Of a DNA stretch of 64,000 nt, positions 9,820 to 47,018 are shown in pieces. Position 1 is the first letter of the stretch. Each line of letters begins with the position of its first letter. Source of the DNA: Sphaerodactylus townsendi (Eukaryota); assembly GCF_021028975.2 (NCBI RefSeq), contig NC_059430.1:57226001-57290000 (forward strand), in the 5' to 3' direction. The position numbers were made by a program, and so were the translations under genes. The notes beneath the pieces are model-generated. The model was not told the origin of the DNA, searched no databases, and saw only the letters and a list, made by a program, of their open reading frames with translations.

Positions 9820-10940
9820 TAAGAACATAAGAACATAAGAACAAGCCAGCTGGATCAGACCAGAGTCCATCTAGTCCAGCTCTCTGCTACTCACAATGGC
9901 CCACCAGGTGCCTTTGGGAGCTCACATGCAGGATGTGAGAGCAATGGCCTTCTGCAGCTTTTGCTCCCGAGCACCTGGACTGTTAAGGCATTTGCAATCT
10001 CAGATCAAAGAGGATCAAGATTGGTAACTATAAATCGACTTCTCCTCCATAAATCTATCCAAGCCCATTTTAAAGCTATCCAGGTTAGTGGCCATCACCA
10101 CCTCCTGTGGCAGCATATTCCAAACACCAATCTGCGTTGCGGGGAAGAAGTGTTTCCCGCCTTTTTTTATTAGTCCTAATTCTTCCCCAGGCATTTTCAG
10201 TGCTTATACCCCTGAGGTTTCCTAGTATTGTGGGAGAAAGAGAGAAAATTTTATCCTCTGTCAACTTGCATTTTTCCTATCCCATACGCATAATTTTGCT
10301 TGAAGACTTCAATCACTTATCCCCCTCAGCCTCCTCCTCCCATTCCAAACTAAAGGGGAGTCCCTGGCAGCTGCAGCGCTCTCTCCTCATAGGGAGGAAG
10401 AAGTGCTCCAGTCCGCTCAATCATCCCTCGTTGCCCTTCTGCTGCACTTTTTCCTATCTCTTGATATATCCTTTTGAGATGTAAGGAGACCAGGAACTGG
10501 ACGCTGAAAATTACTCTCAAAGTCGCGGTCGCTTCCCACCTGCTTTTATATAAGGAGACATGACAATCTTTGCAGTTTTATTCTCAATTCCTTTCCTAAT
10601 GATCCCCAGCATAGAGTTTGCCTTTTTCACAGCTGCCATGCATTGAGTTGACATTCCCATGGAACTATCAACTAAAGGCAGCCCCAAAATCCACTTTCCC
10701 TGGTCACTGTGACTGCATTTAGCACCCTGACCCCTGTAAGCGTGTATGTGACCGAAGTTTGGTTTTGCTTCACTATGTGCATCACTTTACATTTTGCTAC
10801 ATTGAACTGCATTTGCCATTTCTTAGCCCACTCACCTAATTTATCAAGGTCCGCTTGGAGCTCTTCGCAATTTTTTGCGGTTCTCACCACCCTACATAAT
10901 TTGGTATCATCTGCAAACTTGCCCACCACACTACCCACCC
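9820..10940 (-). mobile_element. 5'-truncated CR1 LINE, (ATGTTCTT)n-tail family
   Basis: (aagaacat)n tail at 9820, 3'UTR stem-loop, KFADDTKL RT motif (ORF 10672-10974). Collinear with the copy at 19957-21105. Confidence 0.95.
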
Positions 10941-10959
10941 CCACACTACCCACCCCCAT

Positions 10960-11950
10960 GCTAACCTCTGGCAAGGTGAGGTTTGCCAGAGGTTCACATT
11001 TTTTGACATGAGCCCAAAGCCTTTTGTCCTATCTCACTAATTGGCTGAGGCAAATAATGGCTGTGAATCACCACGGGCCGCAGTTGCCGCTTGGGGTGGG
11101 CAGGGCAAGGTATGATTCCGACCTCAGTGAGAGCAGAAATGGATGAGTGGCCATGCTGAATCAGGGCAGATGATGATGGGTTGGCTGCCTGCTGTCCACA
11201 TCAGAGAAGAGGGGGGCTAGCCCAAGCCTTTAAAGGGCCAAGACCTCCTTTGTGCCAGCCATGTATTTGGGGCGGCTAACGATTTTCCCACCCACCTCTC
11301 CCTATTTTGCGAGATGTTGTTAATGCATGCTACCTTGTTATAGCCATCGGCAGTTTTGGTGCATGGGTATTGATCCGGAAGGGCCAGGAGAGGGGAGCTA
11401 GGGAGCTACCCCTTCCCCTCGGGAATGGCAGACAGTGGCAAGGGACAACAGCCCTGCCAAACAGGGTGTCTGGGGAGCACCTCTTACTGTGAGTCCATGT
11501 CTTCCTGGAATTGGGTTTGGCATGCCACACTGGTGTGGCTTTGATTCTGTTCTTTGAAACTGGTTTTGTTGGTCTTGCAACACTGTGTTCTGAGTTTGAG
11601 TTCATTGGTGATGGGTTTACAGTTTATGGTGGATTCTCACATTGTACATTGGCTTGGTTTCTCAAGTTGTGCATTGTCTCAGCTTCTCAGGTTTAAATGT
11701 GTTGGACTTGCAACAGCATTCCTATTCTATTTAGCTTGGATGATTTTCTGGTTTGACATTAACTTGGATTCTCAGGTCATATGTTTGTTGAGTTAGGTTT
11801 GTCACATTGTCCCACACGTTTGTTGGGATTTCCTGTTTCTGCATTAGTTCTTTGGGTTGTTTGGTTTTGTCTCCTTTGAGAAACTTTTGTCCAGTGGCTG
11901 CTTTGCTTGTTCTTGTGTCTTTGTTTATTCTTTGCCCAGGCTGCACAACA
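10960..11950 (+). mobile_element. Possible solo terminal repeat or non-autonomous remnant of a Ngaro/DIRS-like or LTR element
   Basis: GC-rich front with a tttaaa box (11229) and cccacccacctctcccta. ggcagttttgg and a GT-rich end (tgtgtctttgtttatt...caaca) resemble the 3' segment of the Ngaro element at 28.8-29.5 kb. No ORF. Confidence 0.35.
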
Positions 11951-19956: not shown

Positions 19957-21105
19957 ATAAGAACATAAGAACATAAGAACATAAGAACAAGCCAGCTGGA
20001 TCAGACCAAAGTCCATCTAGTCCAGCTCTCTGCTACTCGCAGTGGCCCACCAGGTGCCTTTGGGAGCTCACATGTAGGATGTGAACGCAATGGCCTTCTG
20101 CGGCTGTTGCTCCCAATCACCTGGTCTGTTAAGGCATTTGCAATCTCAGATCAAAGAGGATCAAGATTGGTAGCCACAAATCGACTTCTCCATAAATCTA
20201 TCCAAGCCCCTTTTAAAGCTATCCAGGTTAGTGGCCATCACCACCTCCTGTGGCAGCATATTCCAAACACCAATCACACGTTGCGTGAAGAAGTGTTTCC
20301 TTTTATTAGTCCTAATTCTTCCCCCCAGCATTTTCAATGAATCCCCCCTGGTTCTAGTATTGTGAGAAAGAGAGAAAAATTTCTCTCTGTCAACATTTTC
20401 TACCCCATGCATAATTTTGTAGACTTCAATCATATCCCCCCTCAGCCGTCTCCTCTCCAAACTAAAGAGTCCCAAACGCTGCAGCCTCTCCTCATAGGGA
20501 AGGTGCTCCAGTCCCTCAATCATCCTTGTTGCCCTTCTCTGCACTTTTTCTATCTCCTCAATATCCTTTTTGAGATGCGGCGACCAGAACTGGACACAGT
20601 ACTCCAAGTGCGGTCGCACCACTGCTTTATATAAGGGCATGACAATCTTTGCAGTTTTATTATCAATTCCTTTTCTAATGATCCCCAGCATAGAGTTTGC
20701 CTTTTTTACAGCTGCCATGCATTGAGTTGACATTCCCATGGATCTATCAACTAAGACGCCTAAATCCCTTTCCTGGTCTGTGACTGATAGCACTGACCCC
20801 TGTAGCGTGTATGTGAAGTTTGGTTTTTTTGCCCCTATGTGCATCACTTTACATTTTGCTACATTGAACTGCATTTGCCATTTCTGAGCCCACTCACCTA
20901 ATTTATCAAGGTCCGCTTGGAGCTCTTCGCAATCCTTTGTGGTTCTCACCACCCTACATAATTTGGTATCATCTGCAAACTTGGCCACCACGCTACCCAC
21001 CCCTACTTCCAGGTCATTTATGAATAGGTTAAAGAGCACTGGTCCCAAAACGGATCCTTGGGGGACACCACTCCCGACATCTCTCCATTGTGAGAACTTC
21101 CCATT
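19957..21105 (-). mobile_element. Young 5'-truncated CR1 LINE with open RT C-terminal frame
   Basis: ORF 20161-21165 contains GVPQGSVLGPVLFNLFINDL, KFADDTKL, RPHLEYCVQFWSP and RRRLRGD. The 3'UTR has the stem agctgga...tccagct and an (ATGTTCTT)n tail. Confidence 0.97.
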
Positions 21106-22935
21106 GAACATTTTACAAAGGTTGTTTATGCACTTCTCCTGTTGAATGAACATTAACCACAACATTGATGTAGAAATATAATTTTAGTTTATTGTACAGT
21201 TCTTCAACCTATTTTTAACAAAATATGGCAGCTAAATTTAATAGACCTAGCAGAACAAATTTTGACATATACCTTTATAATCAATAAGTATATTGGTTCT
21301 ATAATACACACTTGGAGAAGCTAACAAAAATGCTTTTGTATGGTGCTGGTCCAGGCTTAGACTGTAAGATTTGAGAAAATTTTTCATATGGAAAGGAAAG
21401 CCACTTTTTCTCCCTGTTGCATAATATTAGAAGCCAGTGGGTTCACAATGAAGCCAACAGATTGTAGATTCAGGACAGATAAAAGGAATAATTAGCATGT
21501 GGAATGTTAAGATTACTAGTTTAGATGACTTCAGAAAGGACCTTCAGAAAGGACCTTGTCAAGTACAGAGATGATTGGTCTCTTGGGGACTATTAGCCAT
21601 GAAACATGTTTATTCAGGGGCAGTGCAACTCAAAATAGCAGCTGATAGGAGAGGACAGCAACGATGAAAGCTGTGTCCTTTGTTCTCTTTGAGGGGCACA
21701 TCTTGCTGGCCACTGCAGGAGGCAGGATGCTGGACTGGATGAACTTTCGTTTTCAAGTTGCCAGCCTAATCAGACCATCAGTTATCAGGTAGACTTATGT
21801 CACCAACATGGAGAGACAGCATGTAATTAGTTTGATTCATGCCAACTGATTATGTCACCAATTGGGAACAGCTTTTGATAATGTTCACATATATCCTGTA
21901 ACTCTTGAAGCAGCAATCAAGATAAGTCTGGAAAAGGCTGATCATTATCGAAATGGAAGCTCTTACCTACATCCTACATCCTCTTACCTACATTATCGAA
22001 ATGGAAGCTACATCTAGGCCAAGGTCACAACACTGACCCCCTTCTGAGTTGACTAACCAGTGGGTAAACTGCTTATGTAATTGTTTCCATGCTAGTACAA
22101 CTCACAGGGCAGTAGGTTTAGATTTAGAAGACTTTTCCCAGACTTTGTGAATAGTATCTTGAGTGTATGTCAAAATCCAAATACAAAATGTGAATTGCTT
22201 TGTTGTTCACTGATTTGGTCCTCTGCCTTCCCTGTTAGCCATTTGAACTGGTAATGCATATTGTTATTTGTAGTTTCTTTTATTTTTAAAATTTCTGGTA
22301 GTATTACCATAATTAAGTTCGCATGAGAATTTCAATTTCAATTTCTCTTCAGAGAAATGATTTTATGTCAAAAACTGTATGAAACAGAATCATACTGAGA
22401 AAACTTCAAAGAAGAGATTTCTTTGTTCAATTTAGCTTCAAAAAGACCCTTTCATTCTTTTGTGTTTTTAACTATTTTTCAAACTTCCACTGTAATGAAT
22501 AGAACAGGCTTGTGCATTTACCTGGCATAGCGGAATGAGGATGAAGTATTCCTGTTTGACATGGAAGACCTTAGATAGGTTTGGACAGATAATTTTTGTG
22601 AGTACTGCATTGTGTTCAAATGGATACTGTGTTCCAAATGCAATCCTCGGAGTTTCCTTCATATGCTCATCTGCGTATACTTAGAATAGGCAATACTTTG
22701 TACTGAATGTTATGAATCTTTATGTTATAGACCTCATGGATATTTCTGTAGGCCAGAAACGGAGCTGGCCTCGTGTCTCAGCTAAACATGCCAAATTAGT
22801 CCAGAGACCCAAACAAGAATGGCCTTGAAGAGGAATAAGAAACAAAGGAGTATCACAATAATATGTCTGTTCAAGGACTAGAAACTGTCCCACCCTTATC
22901 AAGAGATAATATGACTTGGGAAGCATATGTAAGAA

Positions 22936-28672: not shown

Positions 28673-28832
28673 GTTAACAGCCGTTCTCAGGTCTTGTAAA
28701 CTGAGACTAGTGGCCTTCTTTTTTTAGAATTTTTCTGCATTCTCACTTTAAGTGGCTTTTGTGTTATTGCTGCAGATGGTGAGACCTTTCTCCGCTCAAA
28801 TAAAGACACAACAACGACAGGCTGGAAAAGGA

Positions 28833-29049
28833 NNNNNNNNNNNNNNNNNNNNNNNNNNNNNNNNNNNNNNNNNNNNNNNNNNNNNNNNNNNNNNNNNNNN
28901 NNNNNNNNNNNNNNNNNNNNNNNNNNNNNNNNNNNNNNNNNNNNNNNNNNNNNNNNNNNNNNNNNNNNNNNNNNNNNNNNNNNNNNNNNNNNNNNNNNNN
29001 NNNNNNNNNNNNNNNNNNNNNNNNNNNNNNNNNNNNNNNNNNNNNNNNN
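28833..29049. other. Assembly gap
   Basis: Run of N. Confidence 1.
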
Positions 29050-29529
29050 CGAAACTATATATACAAGGAAGCTGGTGACAAAGCGGGTTGCAGCACATCC
29101 GTCCCAATCTCCATTGGGAACTGTTGGGGAAGCGGGAAGGCCCCAGGAGATATCACTCCGACTGCACCCTTCGCCATGCTTTCGCTGAGGCGGGCACCCG
29201 GCTAAGCCTGCGTGGCAGCCTGGCCAGCCAGCGCCTCCTCTCCCGTGCTTGCTGGGGTAGTCTCCGGGGCCGGCCCCAAGCCCATGACCGCCCTGCTCCT
29301 GAGGCCCGACCCGCCCCCACTCCCTGGGGTGTTGGGCAGACCCGACCTGCCAGCCTGGCCAGCCTGCTGCAGCCTTCCACCCCTGCCCCTTCCACAGGGC
29401 TGGGGCTGGGAGAACCTGCCGGAAGGCTCGTTTTTCTCCCCAGATGTGCGACTCCCGTTGCCAAAACCTGCCACGAGCTGTCCCTCTTGCAGCTCCCGCC
29501 CAAGCCTCTCAAGCCTGAGCCTGTCTGGT

Positions 29530-30100
29530 CCTCACCAACCGGAGGAGGGCATATCGAACGGACTGCAGCCAGAGGTCCAATCCCCATTTTGACAGGTGGA
29601 CACCGTATAGTTCCTTGATGTCCCGTGAAATTTCTGGGTGGTCCGCTACCGCTCCCCCAAGGGTAGAGCACCACCTTGGCGGCCGCCTTGTTTACCTTCC
29701 GGCGAGCCCTGTCCACACCCATGGGGTCAACCGCCCCCTTCCACAGTACCCGCTGTAGAAGGTCGGACCACACCAGGACCATGCCCGATCGGTGCTTTGC
29801 CAAGCTCCTCAGAATAGTGATCACAGCCCACCTCAGTTTGAGGCCCGACCTGGCCGGGAGATCCTCCTCCCCCAGGTGGATAACTAAGATGTCTGGGGTG
29901 GCCAGCTGAAAAATGTATTCGATCAATTTGCACTCCAGCTCGTCCCACTTCATGTCACCCTGGCCCAACTAGGTAATTCTCACGTGTGCTGCAAGTCCAA
30001 GGTGTCGGCCCCATTCAGATGAGCAGGCGTAGTCTCCCGCTTGATTGACGATACTATGCCCCACGACCCACACCTGTCGGACAACAGTCTGTGGCGTCCT
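29530..30100 (-). pseudogene. SGNH/GDSL-like hydrolase ORF of the Ngaro element (disrupted)
   Basis: Block I VWVVGHSIV; in-frame TAG at 29969-71; block II GQGDMKW; block III DILVIHLGEEDL; VWSDLLQR..W; after a frameshift YGVHLSKWGLDLWL (block V, Asp lost). Confidence 0.82.
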
Positions 30101-30120
30101 TGGAAGCACTGTGAAGCAAA

Positions 30121-31038
30121 TCAACAGGATAAGTGAGGGCGGATGTAGGCCCGAAAGGCGTCCGAATGCCACCTGCCCAAGGTGCGGATCTCGTCGTGGG
30201 CCCTGCCCTCCTGTGCCGCAGTTGTGGCAGCCCCTATCCTGAAGGAGTGCAGGCCGAACTCAGTGGCTGGTAACCCAGCCCGGGCCAGGCAAGCCCTCAA
30301 CACTGCCAGCATCTGGAACCTGGTGAGGGGGGAACCATCCTCATGCACCAGCAGCATCCCGCCTTGCCGCAGCCTGTGGCGGAGCCAAGTGGTTAGTGAG
30401 GCAAGGGGGCAGGTCACATCGCCCGGCAAGACCAGCATCGTGACCCAGGCACCGTGGCCCTCCTGATCGGTTTTGGAATGGGCAAGCCATGCATAGACCC
30501 TATCCCCGGACAGGACCAGGTGCTGTCTCTGTAGCACCGTACTCGATAGCCGCTCCCTGGTGGGGGCCACCAGCTCCCCCGGCCTGAAGGCCCCATGATG
30601 CACCAGGTGGAAAGCGGCTGCAAAGAGCAAGCGCTCGTAACGTGAAGCGCACACCTGACGCACCTCCCCCGTGACTGCCTGTAGCACCTCCCTAGTGATG
30701 GGGTGCCTTAAGTCCCTCTGACTGGGTCCCGCCTGCCGCCAGCCTGCCACGAGCCGGCGGACCACAAATGACTTTGTCACGTCCGGGAAGCCAGAGAGCC
30801 TGCAATAGAATGCAATCCCCGCTAGCTGGACCCCCATGGACAGTGGGTGCATCCCTCGACCATGGAGGTGGACTAGGTATTTGAGTAGGAGTCCCCTGTC
30901 CACCCCGCTGCAGACCGTGCGCCCTGCCAATGCTGCATAACTCTGGAAGTCGCACACGGCTCTGTCGTATTGTCTACACTTGGCCGGTGCCAACGAATTC
31001 AAAACACCTGTGATGACGGTTCGCTGCCAAGGTTCCAT
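30121..31038 (-). CDS. Tyrosine recombinase (305 aa, open)
   Basis: Catalytic set AFRPGEL (R), HSKTDQ (K), HSFRIGAAT (HxxR), GRW and FRAYIR (Y). Overlaps the end of the RT/RNase H ORF by 40 nt. Confidence 0.95.
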   Translation of the reverse strand: MEPWQRTVITGVLNSLAPAKCRQYDRAVCDFQSYAALAGRTVCSGVDRGLLLKYLVHLHGRGMHPLSMGVQLAGIAFYCRLSGFPDVTKSFVVRRLVAGWRQAGPSQRDLRHPITREVLQAVTGEVRQVCASRYERLLFAAAFHLVHHGAFRPGELVAPTRERLSSTVLQRQHLVLSGDRVYAWLAHSKTDQEGHGAWVTMLVLPGDVTCPLASLTTWLRHRLRQGGMLLVHEDGSPLTRFQMLAVLRACLARAGLPATEFGLHSFRIGAATTAAQEGRAHDEIRTLGRWHSDAFRAYIRPHLSC

Positions 31039-32620
31039 AAGGCCGCCGGCACTGTCGCCGGGAACAGCTCTGCCCCGGGGGCCAGGCGCCTGAAGCGATC
31101 CACCTGCTGGCGAGATACAGCGTCAGCGATTTCATTCTGCAAACCTGGAACAAAGGCAGCTTTAAAGGAGATGTTATAAGTCAAGCAGGTAAGGACAAGA
31201 TTGCGAACCAGCCGCATAACCCGTGCAGATTTGCTAGACTGCCTGTTCACCACACGTACAACCGCCTGGTTATCGCACCAGAAGAGTACCCTCTTGTTCC
31301 ACCAGCAGTCGTGCCAGATGTGCACTGCCACCAAGATGGGAAACAGCTCAAGAAAAGTGAGGTCCCTAGTAATCCCCAGTGCGTGCCAAGCCGTGGGCCA
31401 GAGGCCCCGAGCCCAATGCCCTTGAAAGTATACACCGAAGCCATGGGCCCCTGAGGCGTCAGAATGCACCTGTAGCTCAAGGCCGGGATCCAGAGATGTC
31501 TGCCACAAAGAGATGCCATTAAAGCCATAGAGAAAGGATCGCCAAACCTTCAGGTCCTCTTTCAGTCCCCTTGTGACTCTAACGTAGTGGTTGGGGGACC
31601 TGCAGCCAGACAGTGACCTTGCCAAGCGGGAGCAGAAGGCCCTGCCTGGTGCCACCACCCTGCAGGCGAAATTAAGGTGACCCAGTAAGGATTGCACCAG
31701 CCGCACTCTGCACTTCCATAGGGGCATGATCGACTGGATTAGGTTGGCTAGGGCGAGCAGCTTGTCCCTGGGGAGTGAGGACGTGCCATGGACCATGTCC
31801 AGCTGTATGCCCAAGTAGCTGAGGGCGGGAGTGGGGCCCTCCGTCTTGTTGGGTGCCAAGGGGACCCCTATTTCGGCTGCCAATGCTTGAAAGGCACTCA
31901 GGGCGACCTCGCACTCTCTGGTGCCCTGCCTGCCAATGAACAGGAAATCATCCAAGTAGTGTGTGACCAACCCAGAGGGGACCCTTTGCCTGAAGGCCCA
32001 CTCCAAAAAAGTGCTGAAGGCCTCGAAGGTGGCACAGGCTATGGAGCATCCCATGGGCATTGCCTTGTCCACATACCAGCACCCTTGGAAGTGGATGCCC
32101 AGCAGCTCAAAGTCTAGGGGAGAAATGGGCAGGAGCTGGAAGGCGGACTGGATGTCGCATTTCGCTAGCAATGCGCCTGGGCGAGCACGGCCGAACTGGC
32201 CTGCGTCCAGGGGTGGCATACCGCGTGGAGCAGCTACCTCGGGTCTATGAAATCGTTAAGCTATGAGTAGCCCGGGGATGGGAGAGATGTTGTATCAGGC
32301 GAAATTCCCCCGGGGCCTTTTTTGGCACTACCCCAATGGGGGAGACCCTCAGGTTGGCTAGGGGAGGCTGGCTATAAGGACCTGCGATCCGGCCAGCCCT
32401 CACTTCCTTATCCAGCTTATTGGCTACCACATCGAGGTGCTCCAAGACAGATTTCAGGTTGTTCGCATGGTAGGCCTTCCTGCACCCTCGGTAAAGGATT
32501 CTGAAACCCGATGTAAAGCCATCCCCCAAAAGGCGTGCTGCGCACCTGTCAGGATATAGCCGCAGCCACCCCTGCAACACCCCCAGCTGGACAGGCGTGG
32601 GGGCCAGGGACTGCAGCAAG
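30999..32620 (-). pseudogene. Reverse transcriptase + RNase H (frameshifted near 32200-32280)
   Basis: SPIGVVPKKAPGEFRLIQHLS, LLAKCDIQSAF, MPMGCS and HYLDDFL. RNase H motifs HSDASG, LELFPI, WCDNQAVV and NEIADAVSR. Confidence 0.95.
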
Positions 32621-32729
32621 GCTGGAATTTCAAAGTTTCTGGGGGGCGGTACCACTGCCCTGGCTGCTGGCTTCCTTCTGAGAGGGCCCGGCGCCAGGGA
32701 AGGCAGACCTGCAGGGAGGCTGACCAGCC

Positions 32730-34108
32730 CGATTGTGCAGCCCACCCTGCTGTGATTTCCAGAACAATTGGAGCAAGCGTGCTCGTACTTGCATTTGAGT
32801 CGCTGGCAAGAGTCCCTATTGAACTCCCAGCAAGTCCCCTTCGCCACCCCCCGTCCTTGGTAGCCCCTAGGGAGGCCTGTCGGTGGAAGGGGAGTCCTGG
32901 ACCCCTTTCATGGCCGGCTGGACCACGACCATCCAGGTTTGATCGTGGATGAGGTCCCAGCGGAAGCGGCTCTTATGAGAAGTGTTCTTACGGATAGCCT
33001 CGTCATAGGCTATAGCCGTGAGTTCCCCGGCCAGAGATCAGGCCCGCAGCACATGCGCCATATGGGCCGTCAGGTGCCAGGCCCGTAGGGGGTATGCGGC
33101 CGCTATTAAGGCCAGGTACTCAGTAAAGCCCTGCAACCAGTTACTAAAAGTGCACTTAGCCGCTAACGGGTCCTTCCTCTTCTTGTCAGCTTTGCCCCCG
33201 GACAATCCGTGCTCACCCTCCCGCCGCAGGCATTTGAAAACGTCTACGTAATACCCGTCTAGGGCCCATTCCCGAAGTTTTCTGGGAAGGTGTGACCAGG
33301 GAGGGTTCCCATTGTCATCGGGGGACGAGCCGGTAGATGGCGCCTCCAACCCCCGAAGGCGCCTGCGCTTAGCTAGCCAGGGGGGGAGAGCGGGCACCTT
33401 TTCCCCTTGGTACCAAAACTCCCCGCTAGCCTGCATTTCGTCGTCCTCGGTCGACTCACCCGATGAAGAAGAGCTGGGCGACCGTCTGGAGGACTGGGAG
33501 TGCCACGACGACCGCTTCTTCCGTCAGCCCTCTCGCTCCGAGGGCCCCACGGACACGTCAACCGACGTGGAAGCGCTCACGGGAGGGGACAACTGGAGTT
33601 CCTGTGCCAGCTGTTCCGACAGGCCCACTCCCGCCGCGCCAGCGGCCACTGGCGTGGATGGCTCCGGGTCCCCTGATCCGCCAGGGGTCCCGAGGCTCCC
33701 GGACGACCCACCGAGGGCTTGGGAGAGGTGGAGCAGCGTGTCCGCCAAATTCCACACCAGGCTGGAGTCGGGCGCTGGATCCCCGGCAGACACGGAGGCT
33801 GCGGAGACAGTGCTAGGGCCCTGCGGTTGTTCGGCCATCGGAGCTGCTTCCCCTGGTAAGGAGGGCTGCCCCACCACATGCGCCGCCCTGCCCCTACCTA
33901 TTGGGGATAAGCCCAGGGCCACGGCCGTAGCCATTCGCGCGGCCGCGCCGATGCGTCCAACCACAGGACCCTCCCCCATGGCATCAGGCCTCGTCTGGGC
34001 TCGAACCCTGTTAAGAAGGGCCCTCACCCTGCCCGAAGGTGCCTGCTCTTCCCGGGAGGGCTCCTTACTTTTTGCACGCTTTGGAGGCATTGTGCCCCAA
34101 GGCTCCAT
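32730..34108 (-). pseudogene. Gag-like ORF1 with C-terminal CCCH+CCHC zinc finger
   Basis: ORFs 33524-34108 and 33038-33436 are in one frame, each ended by TGA. The frame continues AIAYDEAIRK...RWD..DQTW. After a frameshift it reads CWEFNRDSCQRLKCKYEHACSNCSGNHSRVGC. Confidence 0.85.
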
Positions 34109-34359
34109 CCCAGTCTGCGGCCGAGAGGTTGGGAAGAGGAAGGGAGGGATAGAGGAGAATTAGGTTAGGAAAAGCGAGGCTTGGAGAGAAAATTAGACTG
34201 AGCAAGAAAAGGGGGTTGAGCAAGAAAGCAGAAAGGTAGATCAGGTAGGAGCTAGAGACGGCCGTGACTGGGCTCCTTCCAGGCCTTACGCTCGACTCAG
34301 TCCGCACACCACGCCTTTCTGAGTCTCGCCGCCGGGAAGGGCGAGATCTGGGTGAGGCG

Positions 34360-34410
34360 CTCCTTATATATCTCGGCTCCTCCCGCCTTTACCGGCCGGG
34401 AGCCAATCAA
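34360..34410 (-). promoter_or_regulatory. Pol II promoter of the Ngaro element (CCAAT, GC box, TATA)
   Basis: Minus strand gATTGGctcccggccggtaaaGGCGGGAGGagccgagaTATATAAgg, ~260 nt upstream of the gag ATG. Confidence 0.7.
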
Positions 34411-37400
34411 TGCACCCCATTTCTGTAGCATGCCGCCAAGCCATGCTTGCAACCTATTTTTGCTCCTTGGCTCACCCCGGCAGCAATGGCTGCACCCGGT
34501 TATTCAGTTGCTGCTTTTTTTTGTTGGCACTTTTCCACACATGTTTTTCTTCATCTAGTGGGAATACATTATCACATCAGTTTATGTCTGGCAAATCTCT
34601 CTGCAGATTTAAATTGCAAGTTTTTATACCAGATATAACATCAAATCAATCAGTAGAGGGAGCAAAACACATATGGAACAGACTGTCCTCCCCTTGCCCT
34701 GAAAACAGGAACTTAGAAGCAAGGAAAAACAGAATGTGGAAAAGCCCTAAAACTTCTCTTCTCACAAGAATGAAAGTCTTCCCAACTAAACAGTGTGTTT
34801 GCAAACACCAAATACAACTTCATTATCAGTATTCCATTTTTTTAAAGGATGTGTTTTCTGTAGTTGGAAGTGATGCCAGTAAAAAGTACCATCAAGCAGG
34901 GAAAGAGAAATGCCAAGGGGAAAAAAACTTAAAAGATCAGGTTTGTAGCTTAGAGGCTGATCCTGGACCTCAGTGCTTGATGTTGGGAGGAGCCTAGTGT
35001 AACCCATCTCAAGTTTCCTTAAACAGGACATAAGCAAAATAAGAGTCAATAATTCCAAGCTCTTTACCACCTTATCAACTCTTTCCTCCTCTCCCTATGA
35101 ATGATTGCCTGATCAAGTTAGTCCTAAAAGTAACTGGATATAGTTTTCAGCAAACCTAACTCTACTTTCCAAGACATTTAAAAATCTGGCTCTCTAAGGC
35201 TTGAATAATAACAGTTTTATGGCATGTTTCATTTTATGTAAAATATCCATTGAGATCTCCCTAGGGAAAAAAAAACACTATGCCTTCCAAATGTGAGTGA
35301 TCAACAATGAAGGATTGAACTTGTGAATTTGCTTTAACAGTTTGTTTGATTTGTACTTTTGCTTCCAAGATAAACTTCATTTTGATAGCATTTAATAGGC
35401 AAATGTTTGCAAAATTACAGCACACTGTTATGGTGGAACTCATTACAATAATTTCTAAGCATCCAATTTTCCAAAATGAGATTGGTATAAAATTTATGGC
35501 TTTTTTGTTACATCATTTTATGAAATAGTTAGGTCATCTGGAGGCCATGAAACATTTGCTAAGCTATGAATTTCAAAACACAAATTAATATTAAACAAAA
35601 TGTAATAAAATTGCATAAAATATAACTTGAATTCAGTTTAAAGTTAGAGAATGAGTCTGCATAGATGAGTCTTGCTTTATATTATCATATACATAGCAAA
35701 TTATCCAAAAACTTTATTGTAGTCCTTAGAGACTCTCAAGTGCATGTTAACAAAAGAGATACATGGTGTGTTGGCGTTTATGCAACTCTTGCATCTAGAA
35801 ACAACTAAAGAAAATTATCACTGTAATGAATCATATAAGAATACTTATATCTATTACAATATATTTTTCTTTTCTATGAAATGTTAGGAATTGTACCATT
35901 CCTGTTAATGAGTTGGAAAATGTTGTATGTTCAAATCTCTTTTTTTTCCTTTTGGCAAAGCATCATGCTATTTGGATTATGAAAGGAAAAACCTCAATAT
36001 ACATCCATTGCAAACAGAATCAGAGAGTGCATTGGTAATGTTCATAAAAATATATTTCTTTGCCCAAAACATTTTTCTGCCATATGCCCCAGGCACCCCC
36101 TTCCAGCAAAGACATGAGACAACAGCATTGGGTTTAATTAGTTTATGTAAATAATTAATTATGCAGATCTACATCATATTATTAAATACACTAACAATTT
36201 AAATGAGCAGGCTATGCTAGGCAGCCTAACAAGGCTCCCTTTGTTTGGCAGACCCTCCCTGACTCCAAACTCAACCTGTGTCTTCTGCTGACCTTGCTTA
36301 TCATCCTCTGTGCACAAAGTACTAAAAGGTGCCTCAGCTCAGCCCCTTTCTCTGATATGCTATATAGACACTACCAAATTCAGAGAGATATTGCTCAGCA
36401 ACTGGGGCACTCTTTCCTAGCAACACCGTGCCATACAATCAATGATGCACTGTTTTAGATACACATTTCAACATTGCTTATACCTCAGGGTGCTTGACAA
36501 TGATCCCTACCTACTGTGATCAACCCACCCTATCCCTGCCACACAAGGCTCTTCATACTCCTGCTGACTATAACATCCTGCTGGCCCTGGTGCAGACCTG
36601 CCAAAACTACAAGTCATTTTCATCCAGACGCAGGGCAAGAATATCAGCATGTTGTGATTGACTGCACAGTAAAATAGAGGTTTAAAAGTGCAAGTCAGTC
36701 AGTGGAACAAGGTGCTAGCACAACAGAACAGGAAAGTGCTCTGATTGGGTAAGCTGACCTGTGCTTTGATTGGTGGAGCAAAACCAGTTGACTTAGAGAG
36801 GAGAGGGAAAATTTTGGGAACTTTTGGATTTGTGTGTGTTAAACTACTCTGAGGGAATTTTAGTTAAGGAGTGAATCTGACTTGAAATATATTGAGAGTC
36901 AGTATGTGCTGAAAGCAGAAAATATTCCTAATTTTCTTGCCTGCAAGTTTCATTTCAGTGGTCAAGGCTGAAGGTGGAATAACAGTAAGATTTTCCACAG
37001 GTGACCATAAATAAAAGGGAAGGGACTATATCTTCTGGGTGTAGAAGAAGAAATCCTAAGCCAGTTAGAACAGGAAGTATGCACACAGGTGGATTCCCAA
37101 GCTGGCATATTAGTGTTCTGCCATAGTTACCTCAGGAGGGAGCCAGTAACATCTAACTGTACCATCTTAAAGAAAAGAACCTCTCATAACATATAAGCAA
37201 CTGAAGAAACATAAAAAGCTTGATTAAGAACTGTGCCTGTGCCAAAACTGATGTTTGTATATAGTTAATTCGTGTCTGATCTCCATTCACTGAAATATCT
37301 CCTGATCCTACCTAGTTTGTTGTTGTTTCTTCTTGTTGCCTTGGAAATGGAGATTTTCCATAGGGAGAAGACTCCCTTCACTTTTCTAGAGTTCATCAGG

Positions 37401-44590: not shown

Positions 44591-46312
44591 TTGTTATCCA
44601 AACAGGCAGTGTTTGCATGCTGACGTCCCATGAGTGAATGGTAGCTTTCTTTTCCTTTCTTCCCTCTTTGCAAAGATGCAATACTCTGAAGAAATGCATG
44701 CCAGCCATTGGCTGGGAGAGAATCTCTCAACATTTGTTGAAAGCTCTAGAGAGCTCTCATTGTTAGGGCCGAATCAAACTAGAAAAAGCCAAACTGAGGT
44801 TGGTTGTTTTTTTTCAGATTCAGCTTTACCAAATCACTAAACCTAATTTCAGGCTTTAGACAATTTTTGTTGTGTTAGGCAAGTTTTATTTGCAGGGTTT
44901 TCCAGTCTCTGTAATCCTAGTCCTACTGCATTTTCATTATCTTCCCTGTCTAATTTAATTGCCTTTCATATTCTGTAATGCACTTTAAGTCTCAATGAAA
45001 AAGACAAACTATAAATGAAACTGTTGTTTTGTTGCTGATATACATGTTAGCATTTCAGCAGGTATAAAAGGAATTGGGGGCTCTCCCTTTACCACCAAAA
45101 AACGTTATGATGGGGATCATGGGACCTGCTTGAACAAAAATCAGAAGGAGTGACTGCTTTGGGAAGGAAAGCAACTAGGCAGGATTAAGTGAAAAAGCTG
45201 GCTGGATCCAACCCAATCAACATTATGATAATGCTAATTTTGAATTTTCCCTTGATATAAAGAAAGTAAAATATAATTTAGTGGCTGTAGATGGGAAATA
45301 TATTATCAGAATAAATATTGTGCATTTATTTTTCACAGGATTAAAAACAACAACAAATAACAGGATCTAAGCCTATGTCCATTTTATAAGTGTATTTTAT
45401 AAGTGGATGAAAGGATCAGGGAATTGGTTAAAGGGTTTGCATAAGGACAGAAAGGCATTTGTGATTGTCATTATATTACCTTGAGTCCATGTTTTAAAAG
45501 GTCTCTTTTTTAAAAATGAAACAGCTGTTGAGCCATACTAGAGTTGTTCTGTTGATTTTCAAGGAGTAGCACAGACCAACTTTCTTTTCATTCATAGTAA
45601 ATGCATCTGTTCTTGAATTTCAATGACTGTTCAAAAATCCTTTTAAAAGTAATTAAATATAACATGCAGCTCATTTCCTAATCTATAACCCACTGTAGAC
45701 TCAAGGTAATATATTTGAAAAAAGCAAGATTTACACTCCAGTGATAGCACTTTATAATAACCTGACCTCTTTTTAGCTCAGGTGCCACTTTCGTGGTATT
45801 GATTACTTGAAATGTAACTACTATAGATTAATTCTACCTCTAAATGAGGAACACTGGCATGCACAAATGAAACACAGAGTTCACACATAAAGATTCCTTT
45901 TTTTAAAAAAAAAAGATACATCAACTCCATAAAACAACAGTAGGCTAAAGAAAATAGTTCACAGTAAAAAATCTAATTTAATATACATGACAAACAAAAT
46001 ATTACTAAGCTTTTGCTGATAAATGAGACTTTTCCCATCTTCACAGATGGAAAATGCTCTAGATGTTAGAATAGTTAACTCTTGGAAAGGGGATTGTCAT
46101 AATATGGGCATAGGCTTAGATCCAAACGAGCCTCATCCACTCATTTTGGGGGTATCTGTTTATATCTCCCGTTCCATTACAACCCCTAGCCTTGAGTTCT
46201 TGTCACACAATGGTGCCCACTGTGTTTTTAAAAATGGACAGTGAATATAGGGTTCTTCTTACTACTGGGTTCCCAGTGGTGGGATCCAAAAATTTTACTA
46301 ACAGGTTCCCAT

Positions 46313-47018
46313 TGACAACACTACATGCGAAAGGGATCTGGGAGTCTTAGTAGACCATAAACTAAATATGAGTCAGCAGTGTGATCTGGCGGCCAAGAAA
46401 GCCAATGCAAATCTGGGTTGTATCAATAGAAGTATAGTGTCAAGATCGAGGGATGTAATTGTACCTCTCTATTCTGCATTGGTTAGACCTCACCTGGAAT
46501 ATTGTGTACAGTTCTGGGCACTGCAGTTCGGGAGGGATGCTGACTGGCTGGAGAGGGTCCAGAGGAGGACAACCAAAATGGTAAAGGGTCTGGAGTCCGT
46601 GCTGTACAAAGAGAGGCTTAGGGAACTGGGGATGTTTAGTCTGGAGAAGCGTAGGTTAAGGGGTGACATGATAGTCATGTTTAAATATTTGAAGGGATGT
46701 CATGTCAAAGAGGGAGCAAGCTTGTTTTCTGCTGCCTCAGAGACTAGAACACAGAGTAGTGGATTTAAGGTGAAGGAAAAGAGATTCCATCTAAACATTA
46801 GGAAGAACTTCCTGACTGTCAGGGCTGTTCGACAGTGAAACGCACCACCTCGGAGAGTGGTGGAGTCTCCTTCTTTGGAGGTTTTTAAACAGAGGCTGGA
46901 TGAGCATATGTCGGGAGTGCTTTGATTGTGTGTTCCTGCATTGCAGGGGGTTGGACTTGATGGCCTTTGTGGTCTTTTCCAACTCTATGAATCTGTTATT
47001 CTATTCTATGATTCTATG
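46313..47018 (+). mobile_element. CR1 3' fragment, (ATTCTATG)n-tail family
   Basis: ORF 46368-46838 with VRPHLEYCVQFW and KRRLRGD; tail attctattctatgattctatg. Preceded by a truncated hAT MITE end (46274-46311). Confidence 0.92.

Follow-up and report, generated by a model that had tools for sequence, protein, structure and literature searches.

The window analysed here, a 64,000-nucleotide stretch of contig NC_059430.1 from the lizard Sphaerodactylus townsendi, carries on its minus strand an element that extends from 34520 to 28766 and contains ORF1, a reverse transcriptase/RNase H (RT/RH) region, a tyrosine recombinase (YR) and, last, a reading frame with the motifs of an SGNH hydrolase. The 5' end of the element is an A1 terminal repeat with a TATA-like box (34309..34520). 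The gag-like ORF1 region (33038..34159) is frameshifted near 33525 and the RT/RNase H region (30999..32907) near 32260, and the recombinase ORF (30121..31122) is open. The 3' non-coding part (28766..29477), in which 28833-29049 reads as N, contains B1, and the element stops at 28766 without A2 or B2. In Pfam searches the RT region matched RVT_1 (E = 2.7e-10), with weak RNase H-like matches, and the recombinase ORF matched Phage_integrase at an E value of 0.0011, which is below the cut-off; its HSFR..W..Y motifs are nevertheless visible, and it is 36-44% identical to the YRs of other families.

Split direct repeats in the order A1...B1-A2-B2 were recognized in related copies. The A1/A2 pair was present in 13 of the 40 copies fetched at 7 kb, 8 of which also had the second B repeat; the window copy has A1 and B1 only. 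There was no match to a methyltransferase in the seven frames scanned. The RT/RNase H, the tyrosine recombinase in place of an integrase, the split repeats, the lack of a methyltransferase and the hydrolase after the YR place the element in the Ngaro superfamily (order DIRS), and support the original prediction that the SGNH frame is cargo of such an element. Most of the fetched copies end exactly at the expected start of A2 (window 28766), lacking A2/B2, and at certain copies a 64-bp repeat unit from the 3' non-coding part (window 29200-29367) has been amplified into long tandem arrays (L079:6212-7001 and L083:1-3989). Just upstream of the ORF1 start, a long pyrimidine tract ending in CAG (34180-34290, minus strand) resembles the acceptor of a 5' UTR intron. 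Elsewhere in the window there are reverse-transcriptase fragments of CR1-like LINEs (20161-21183, 10672-11028 and 46302-46838) and what looks like another LINE fragment (625-1283).

The SGNH frame, an exon or fourth ORF (ORF4) assigned on motif and fold evidence and broken in this copy, occupies 29509..30108 on the minus strand, from 30108, immediately after a site resembling a splice acceptor, to a TGA at 29509. It adjoins the 3' end of the 333-codon recombinase frame, and has no start codon upstream of block I. Its motifs are GHS in block I (30053..30061, with the nucleophile Ser), GQGDM in block II (29951..29965), GEEDL in block III (29858..29872) and GVHL, starting at 29604, in block V (29593..29607). 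An SGNH ORF downstream of the recombinase is thus real, with its motifs where they had been claimed and, as described below, an SGNH fold; of the interval 29530..30172 originally proposed, which contains all of the motifs, 30172-30121 is however the end of the recombinase ORF.

Compared with its 29 nearest copies, the window copy has three private lesions. A premature TAG (29969..29971) replaces a Trp that is present in 29 of the 30 copies, a single extra base at about 29664 (29664..29665) shifts the reading frame, and an in-frame 9-bp deletion at about 29606 has removed the block V Asp, likewise present in 29 of 30. The TAG, as a change from the Trp codon TGG, and the frameshift had both been predicted, whereas the deletion had been missed. 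The window copy, 93% identical to its nearest fetched relative, is dead as an element.

When read with X, the broken frame of the window copy had no SGNH match in Pfam, and a single-sequence PDB search gave chance matches only. An intact natural copy (P0002) matched Lipase_GDSL_2 with an E value of 0.0016, below the curated cut-off, and a profile of 70 family sequences matched the ZfL2-1 esterase (4c1b) at 8e-11. The structure predicted for P0002 had a pLDDT of 95.8, and in Foldseek and VIA searches all of the matches listed were SGNH/GDSL-fold proteins or designs built on one, the best having a Z score of 19.3 and an rmsd of 2.6 with 177 aligned. Profile, model and structure searches therefore all lead to the five-stranded, flavodoxin-like SGNH hydrolase fold, the lack of which would have spoken against the original call. 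A homodimer prediction for the domain, scoring 0.00, spoke neither for nor against a dimer. Among named proteins, the closest homologues come from lizards and newts. From the profile alignment we derived a map of the family onto ZfL2-1 (numbering as given in PMC3905857), in which S18 corresponds to S143, position 51 to G165, position 81 to N195, D170 to D279, position 173 to H282, H77 to H191 and S114 to S228.

We then compared the active-site residues in 64 distinct copies of the family (100 loci, with duplicates dropped). The block I Ser was found in all 64, and belongs to the 40 invariant positions among the 201 in the domain; the His beside it was also present in 64/64. At position 51, the Gly site of block II, Gly was never found (0/64), the residue being His in 26 copies, Asn in 21, Asp in 13 and Arg in 4, and a Gly sits one place earlier. 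The original reading of this block as G.GDM needs correcting in that the oxyanion Gly (G165 of ZfL2-1) aligns with the D of GQGDM and not with a Gly. At position 81, the Asn site of block III, the residue was Glu in 62 copies and Asp in 2 (Asn 0/64). The block V Asp170 was retained in 62 of 63 copies, and position 173, the site of the catalytic His, was His in 39, Arg in 23 and another residue in 2. Genome-wide searches with exact patterns gave 117 Arg and 40 His matches, with none in reversed controls, making the Arg clade the majority form; some of the 40 His matches are Arg-clade in sequence and resemble CpG back-changes. Ser, Asp and His are kept in the subfamily to which the window copy belongs, the Asp being deleted in that copy itself. 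It had been proposed that a consensus with canonical GxND and DGVH would speak against a non-catalytic family: GxND is absent throughout, in favor of the non-catalytic idea, although the window's subfamily does keep DGVH.

In a set of 146 single-domain homologues, taken from the 150 best representatives and 9 additional matches, Gly was present in 138, Asn in 139 and His in 134, and 116 had all five residues. The canonical site is kept by other Ngaro families of this genome: at their top 30 loci, Asn and His were each present in 29, and 29 had a recombinase upstream. Among 42 positions at least 70% conserved in the homologues, five had changed in the family (His counted), and three of these are signature residues (P = 0.008 for enrichment at signature residues, or 0.06 without the His). 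The core residues were kept, as were the transposon-specific ones, the equivalents of ZfL2-1 H191 (63/64) and S228 (64/64).

Could the window simply hold a decayed copy of an ordinary, active esterase gene? Its three lesions are private, and its ORF1 and RT are broken too; yet every one of the 64 copies has the block II and III changes and the majority clade has the His change as well, which refutes this reading for blocks II and III and leaves it with scarcely any probability overall. Decay does explain the stop, the frameshift and the loss of Asp (Trp and Asp each in 29/30). The original choice between decay and a family-wide variant was therefore not a real one, since this copy has decayed and catalytic residues have been lost across the family.

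The order of these losses could be read from trees. In a DNA tree from which the His/Arg codon was excluded, that codon required two changes, one on a fully supported internal branch and one a CpG-type back-change in a single copy. In a protein tree with outgroups (a quick tree), the family formed one clade on a long stem, with the His lineages, including that of the window, basal and the Arg copies nested. Gly and Asn were lost on the stem of the family, and His was changed to Arg later in one nested clade. Some copies of that clade have A repeats that are 98-100% identical and long open frames, so the clade has been active recently. We considered the His copies as reversions from Arg, which was rejected because the outgroups put His basal, only scattered single copies (e.g., L063) looking like CpG back-changes. 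A burst of change specific to the SGNH domain on the stem was also rejected, as SGNH and YR diverge in proportion.

Estimates of dN/dS were obtained from variants common to at least two copies, private variants being counted apart; the copies came from similarity searches, which favor intact frames. For the SGNH domain, 24 Arg-clade copies gave a dN/dS of 0.23 (0.18-0.30) and 15 His copies one of 0.18 (0.13-0.24), compared with 0.16-0.18 for RT and YR (beside the Arg clade, YR 0.18 and RT 0.16). Private variants gave 0.52-1.18. A codon model of the Arg clade with private codons masked gave 0.12, against 0.10 for YR. The same count applied to 30 neutral simulations gave 0.90 (0.66-1.29). Shifted frames yielded values of 1.54 and 2.26 and one antisense frame 0.38, as expected where third positions coincide. 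Eight Arg-Arg pairs had values of 0.19-0.29, and 13 pairs of intact families 0.11-0.33. The His-less domain is thus under purifying selection similar in strength to that on the recombinase and on intact families. Together with the loss of Asn and block II Gly from all 64 copies and the replacement of His in the majority clade, this persisting selection (0.12-0.23, versus 0.90 for the neutral control) upholds the proposal of a family-wide non-catalytic variant.

If the domain did nothing, being kept only for folding of a fusion protein or through a constraint on the RNA, its active-site residues might have been the first to change, as they were, and its last 7-10 residues would be free to vary among copies, as they do through stops or frameshifts. 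Such a burden could, however, be shed by losing the acceptor or gaining a stop, yet the 24 Arg-clade copies examined, a sample biased toward intact frames, were of equal length with no internal stop. Moreover, dS in the domain (0.30-0.54) was as high as in RT and YR, arguing that there is no RNA-level constraint, and dN/dS equals that of intact families. We consider an idle passenger very unlikely.

What, then, of catalysis? We infer that the Arg clade very probably lacks esterase activity, and that the His subfamilies, including that of the window, likely have little or none. In ZfL2-1, the substitution H282S is reported to abolish activity (PMC3905857). The domain might still be an enzyme with changed chemistry, such as acyl transfer with a rebuilt oxyanion hole, at least in the His subfamilies. 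Ser, Asp and His are intact in the window's subfamily, the Ser is invariant, block II has a Gly at the preceding position, and the equally invariant His next to the Ser might serve as a base. By established chemistry, however, an acidic residue at the oxyanion position should repel the reaction intermediate; nor can Arg be a general base, and the later replacement of His left the strength of selection unchanged. Although active SGNH enzymes with rebuilt oxyanion holes do exist (PatB1, SASA and XOAT1; PMC9487903), we regard altered chemistry as quite unlikely.

The original prediction had also suggested binding to lipids or membranes. A dead pocket might hold an acyl chain and anchor the RNP to membranes without releasing it. 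Active-site mutants of ZfL2-1 are reported to float with liposomes still (PMC3905857), the equivalents of H191 and S228 are kept in the family, as are the other conserved Trp residues, and the predicted fusion described below would add an Arg-rich motif. However, liposome binding by ZfL2-1 is described as driven by surface charge (PMC3905857), and the family does not have a strongly basic domain of that type: the median net charge was -1 in 27 His copies and 0 in 22 Arg copies, with a pI of 6.8-7.3 in these 49, versus +8 and a pI of about 10 in 125 intact sequences (25 other-family copies and 100 homologues), all as whole-domain charge. The basic residues of block II and one conserved pocket Trp have gone. 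The same mode of binding is therefore less likely, unless the upstream Arg-rich motif supplies the charge. As far as it can be tested, a lipid- or membrane-binding variant was not supported, and we think it rather unlikely.

For the frame, which lacks a start codon, splicing to ORF1 is predicted. Just after the YR stop, a predicted branch point and pyrimidine tract precede a phase 1 CAG acceptor (30109..30135, minus strand). Within ORF1, after an Arg/Ser-rich motif, there is a predicted phase 1 donor (33454..33462, minus strand), and its strong donor site at 33459, in matching phase, is present in 38 of 39 copies; by comparison, T was equally fixed at 6 of 382 four-fold sites. Only one of 39 copies lacks the acceptor AG, and the tract upstream of it tolerates 1-base indels. 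A similar acceptor was judged by eye to occur at 30 loci of other families. The same donor was found in six of seven copies of one distant family, and at 10 of 11 loci in three other families no donor at the corresponding position exceeded the score cut-off. In NCBI models, lizard homologues combine a gag-like N-terminus with an SGNH domain. A search with one exact pattern found no spliced DNA copies, and none of 2745 candidates was a longer, fused homologue (weak evidence). The 15 of 41 joints that were listed for four contig runs of unknown kind, with no donor-acceptor joint among them, count neither for nor against splicing. A spliced RNA, which the original prediction had suggested looking for, is predicted from the conserved sites: the 33459 donor is very probably joined to the 30109 acceptor, which would give about 205-210 amino acids of ORF1, ending in the Arg/Ser-rich motif, followed by the 200-residue domain. 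At the start of the YR frame (31100-31115, minus strand) there is also a conserved branch-like motif with a tandem CAGCAG in the phase of the ORF1 donor, and the YR may be a second splice product.

Our preferred explanation, which is probably correct, is that the window contains a decayed copy of a Ngaro SGNH-fold gene from a family that has lost its active-site residues with the fold under purifying selection, the domain being a likely pseudo-enzyme that works by binding, as part of a predicted spliced fusion with the front half of ORF1. The fusion would co-assemble with Gag via their common N-terminus, its basic Arg/Ser motif would supply a contact with nucleic acid or membrane, and within the RNP of the element the dead domain would bind proteins or serve as a scaffold. 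Selection in cis is most likely on the fold and not the chemistry, with the fusion a structural, binding component of the RNP. The binding partner may be a protein, to which we would give slightly less than an even chance. Hydrolysis, if still needed, could be supplied in trans by intact families of the same genome; supply of the hydrolase in trans has been raised before (PMC3905857), and the DIRS-1 RT is reported to act in trans (PMC7192593).

Related domains also occur in host genes. Seven gecko proteins (P0012, P0013, P0014, P0019, P0022, P0029 and P0034) have a ZNF638/Matrin-like N-terminus followed by two to six tandem SGNH domains of the Ngaro type, in none of which the active site is complete; two loci with this kind of N-terminus (L163 and L164) lie 60 kb apart at G000:C10:87478245-87538225. 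In fish, P0016, P0023, P0083, P0100, P0125 and P0130 combine CSDE1-like cold-shock domains with one to four SGNH domains of the Ngaro type, one intact in some and up to four degenerate in clupeiforms, which looks like a second domestication. In the multi-domain proteins, 0/35 domains keep all five residues. The gecko host domains form a separate clade, so the loss was convergent. For the same reason, and with scores per domain of 53-93 bits versus 170 for an element-type homologue, we rejected an origin of the family's dead domain in these genes. A single-copy open SGNH exon with an acceptor (L118; G000:C11:8562541-8563101), in which Asn and His are both replaced, is possibly a captured host exon: it has no recombinase upstream, and no upstream exon was found in 20 kb. 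It was rejected as a sister family, being a single locus with the next match at 52%. ZNF638 has a role in silencing retroviral DNA. The Ngaro SGNH might be a binding module in a conflict between host and element, in which geckos captured it, in the form of dead tandem copies attached to a nuclear protein of the ZNF638/Matrin type, to recognize or poison Ngaro particles, the charge-neutral dead domain of the family being the matching adaptation and hydrolysis incidental to the domain's role in the retrotransposon; we consider this decidedly unlikely.

For the esterase domains carried by Ngaro, CR1, L2, RTEX and other retroelements, the case that catalysis matters has leaned chiefly on conservation of the active site. 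A spreading lineage that dropped three signature residues stepwise, with undiminished selection on the fold, separates a catalytic from a non-catalytic role, and one genome offers a natural series of intact, Asn/Gly-less and His-less domains. This stops short of proving catalysis wholly dispensable, since the activity might be provided in trans by intact families. In the open-access literature searched, outside the original Ngaro papers of Goodwin and Poulter, there was no account of a Ngaro hydrolase that has lost catalysis or is spliced, nor of an active Ngaro lineage in which residues were lost stepwise while selection persisted; the supplementary alignment of PMC3905857 and the tables of PMC9210276 may be relevant to novelty.

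Ngaro hydrolase ORFs, dead SGNH folds such as Oskar, and catalytically stripped GDSL domains in retroelements (Athena-L; PMC5408684) are already known. The closest likeness in layout is to DIRS-53_XT and DIRS-54_XT of Xenopus, described as Ngaro elements with a hydrolase (PMC9210276), which have gag, RT/RH and YR followed by an SGNH ORF, split direct repeats and a hydrolase of no proven function. The present family differs in its lizard host, in a domain that has lost Gly and Asn throughout the family and, in most copies, His as well, and in its predicted spliced fusion to ORF1; neither catalytic residues nor splicing figure in the description available of the Xenopus elements. The best solved relative by profile is the ZfL2-1 ORF1p esterase (4c1b), in which an N-terminal region, an Arg-rich motif and then the SGNH domain follow in an order like that of the predicted fusion. 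ZfL2-1 is however a non-LTR element with one unspliced ORF and an active domain with a pI of 10.8 (PMC3905857), whereas the window family is a YR element, predicted to be spliced, with a changed active site and neutral charge. The GDSL derivatives in Athena-L, of rotifer Penelope-like elements, are likewise retroelement SGNH domains without catalytic residues, but belong to another element class and another SGNH subfamily, and stepwise loss or a test of selection does not figure in the description available (PMC5408684). Finally, the OSK domain of Oskar and insect homologues of PAF-AH are reported to use an SGNH fold without hydrolysis for binding, of RNA in the case of Oskar (PMC3905857, PMC10792757). 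These are host proteins, likened to the present domain by fold, and Oskar lacks the Ser that the window family has kept.
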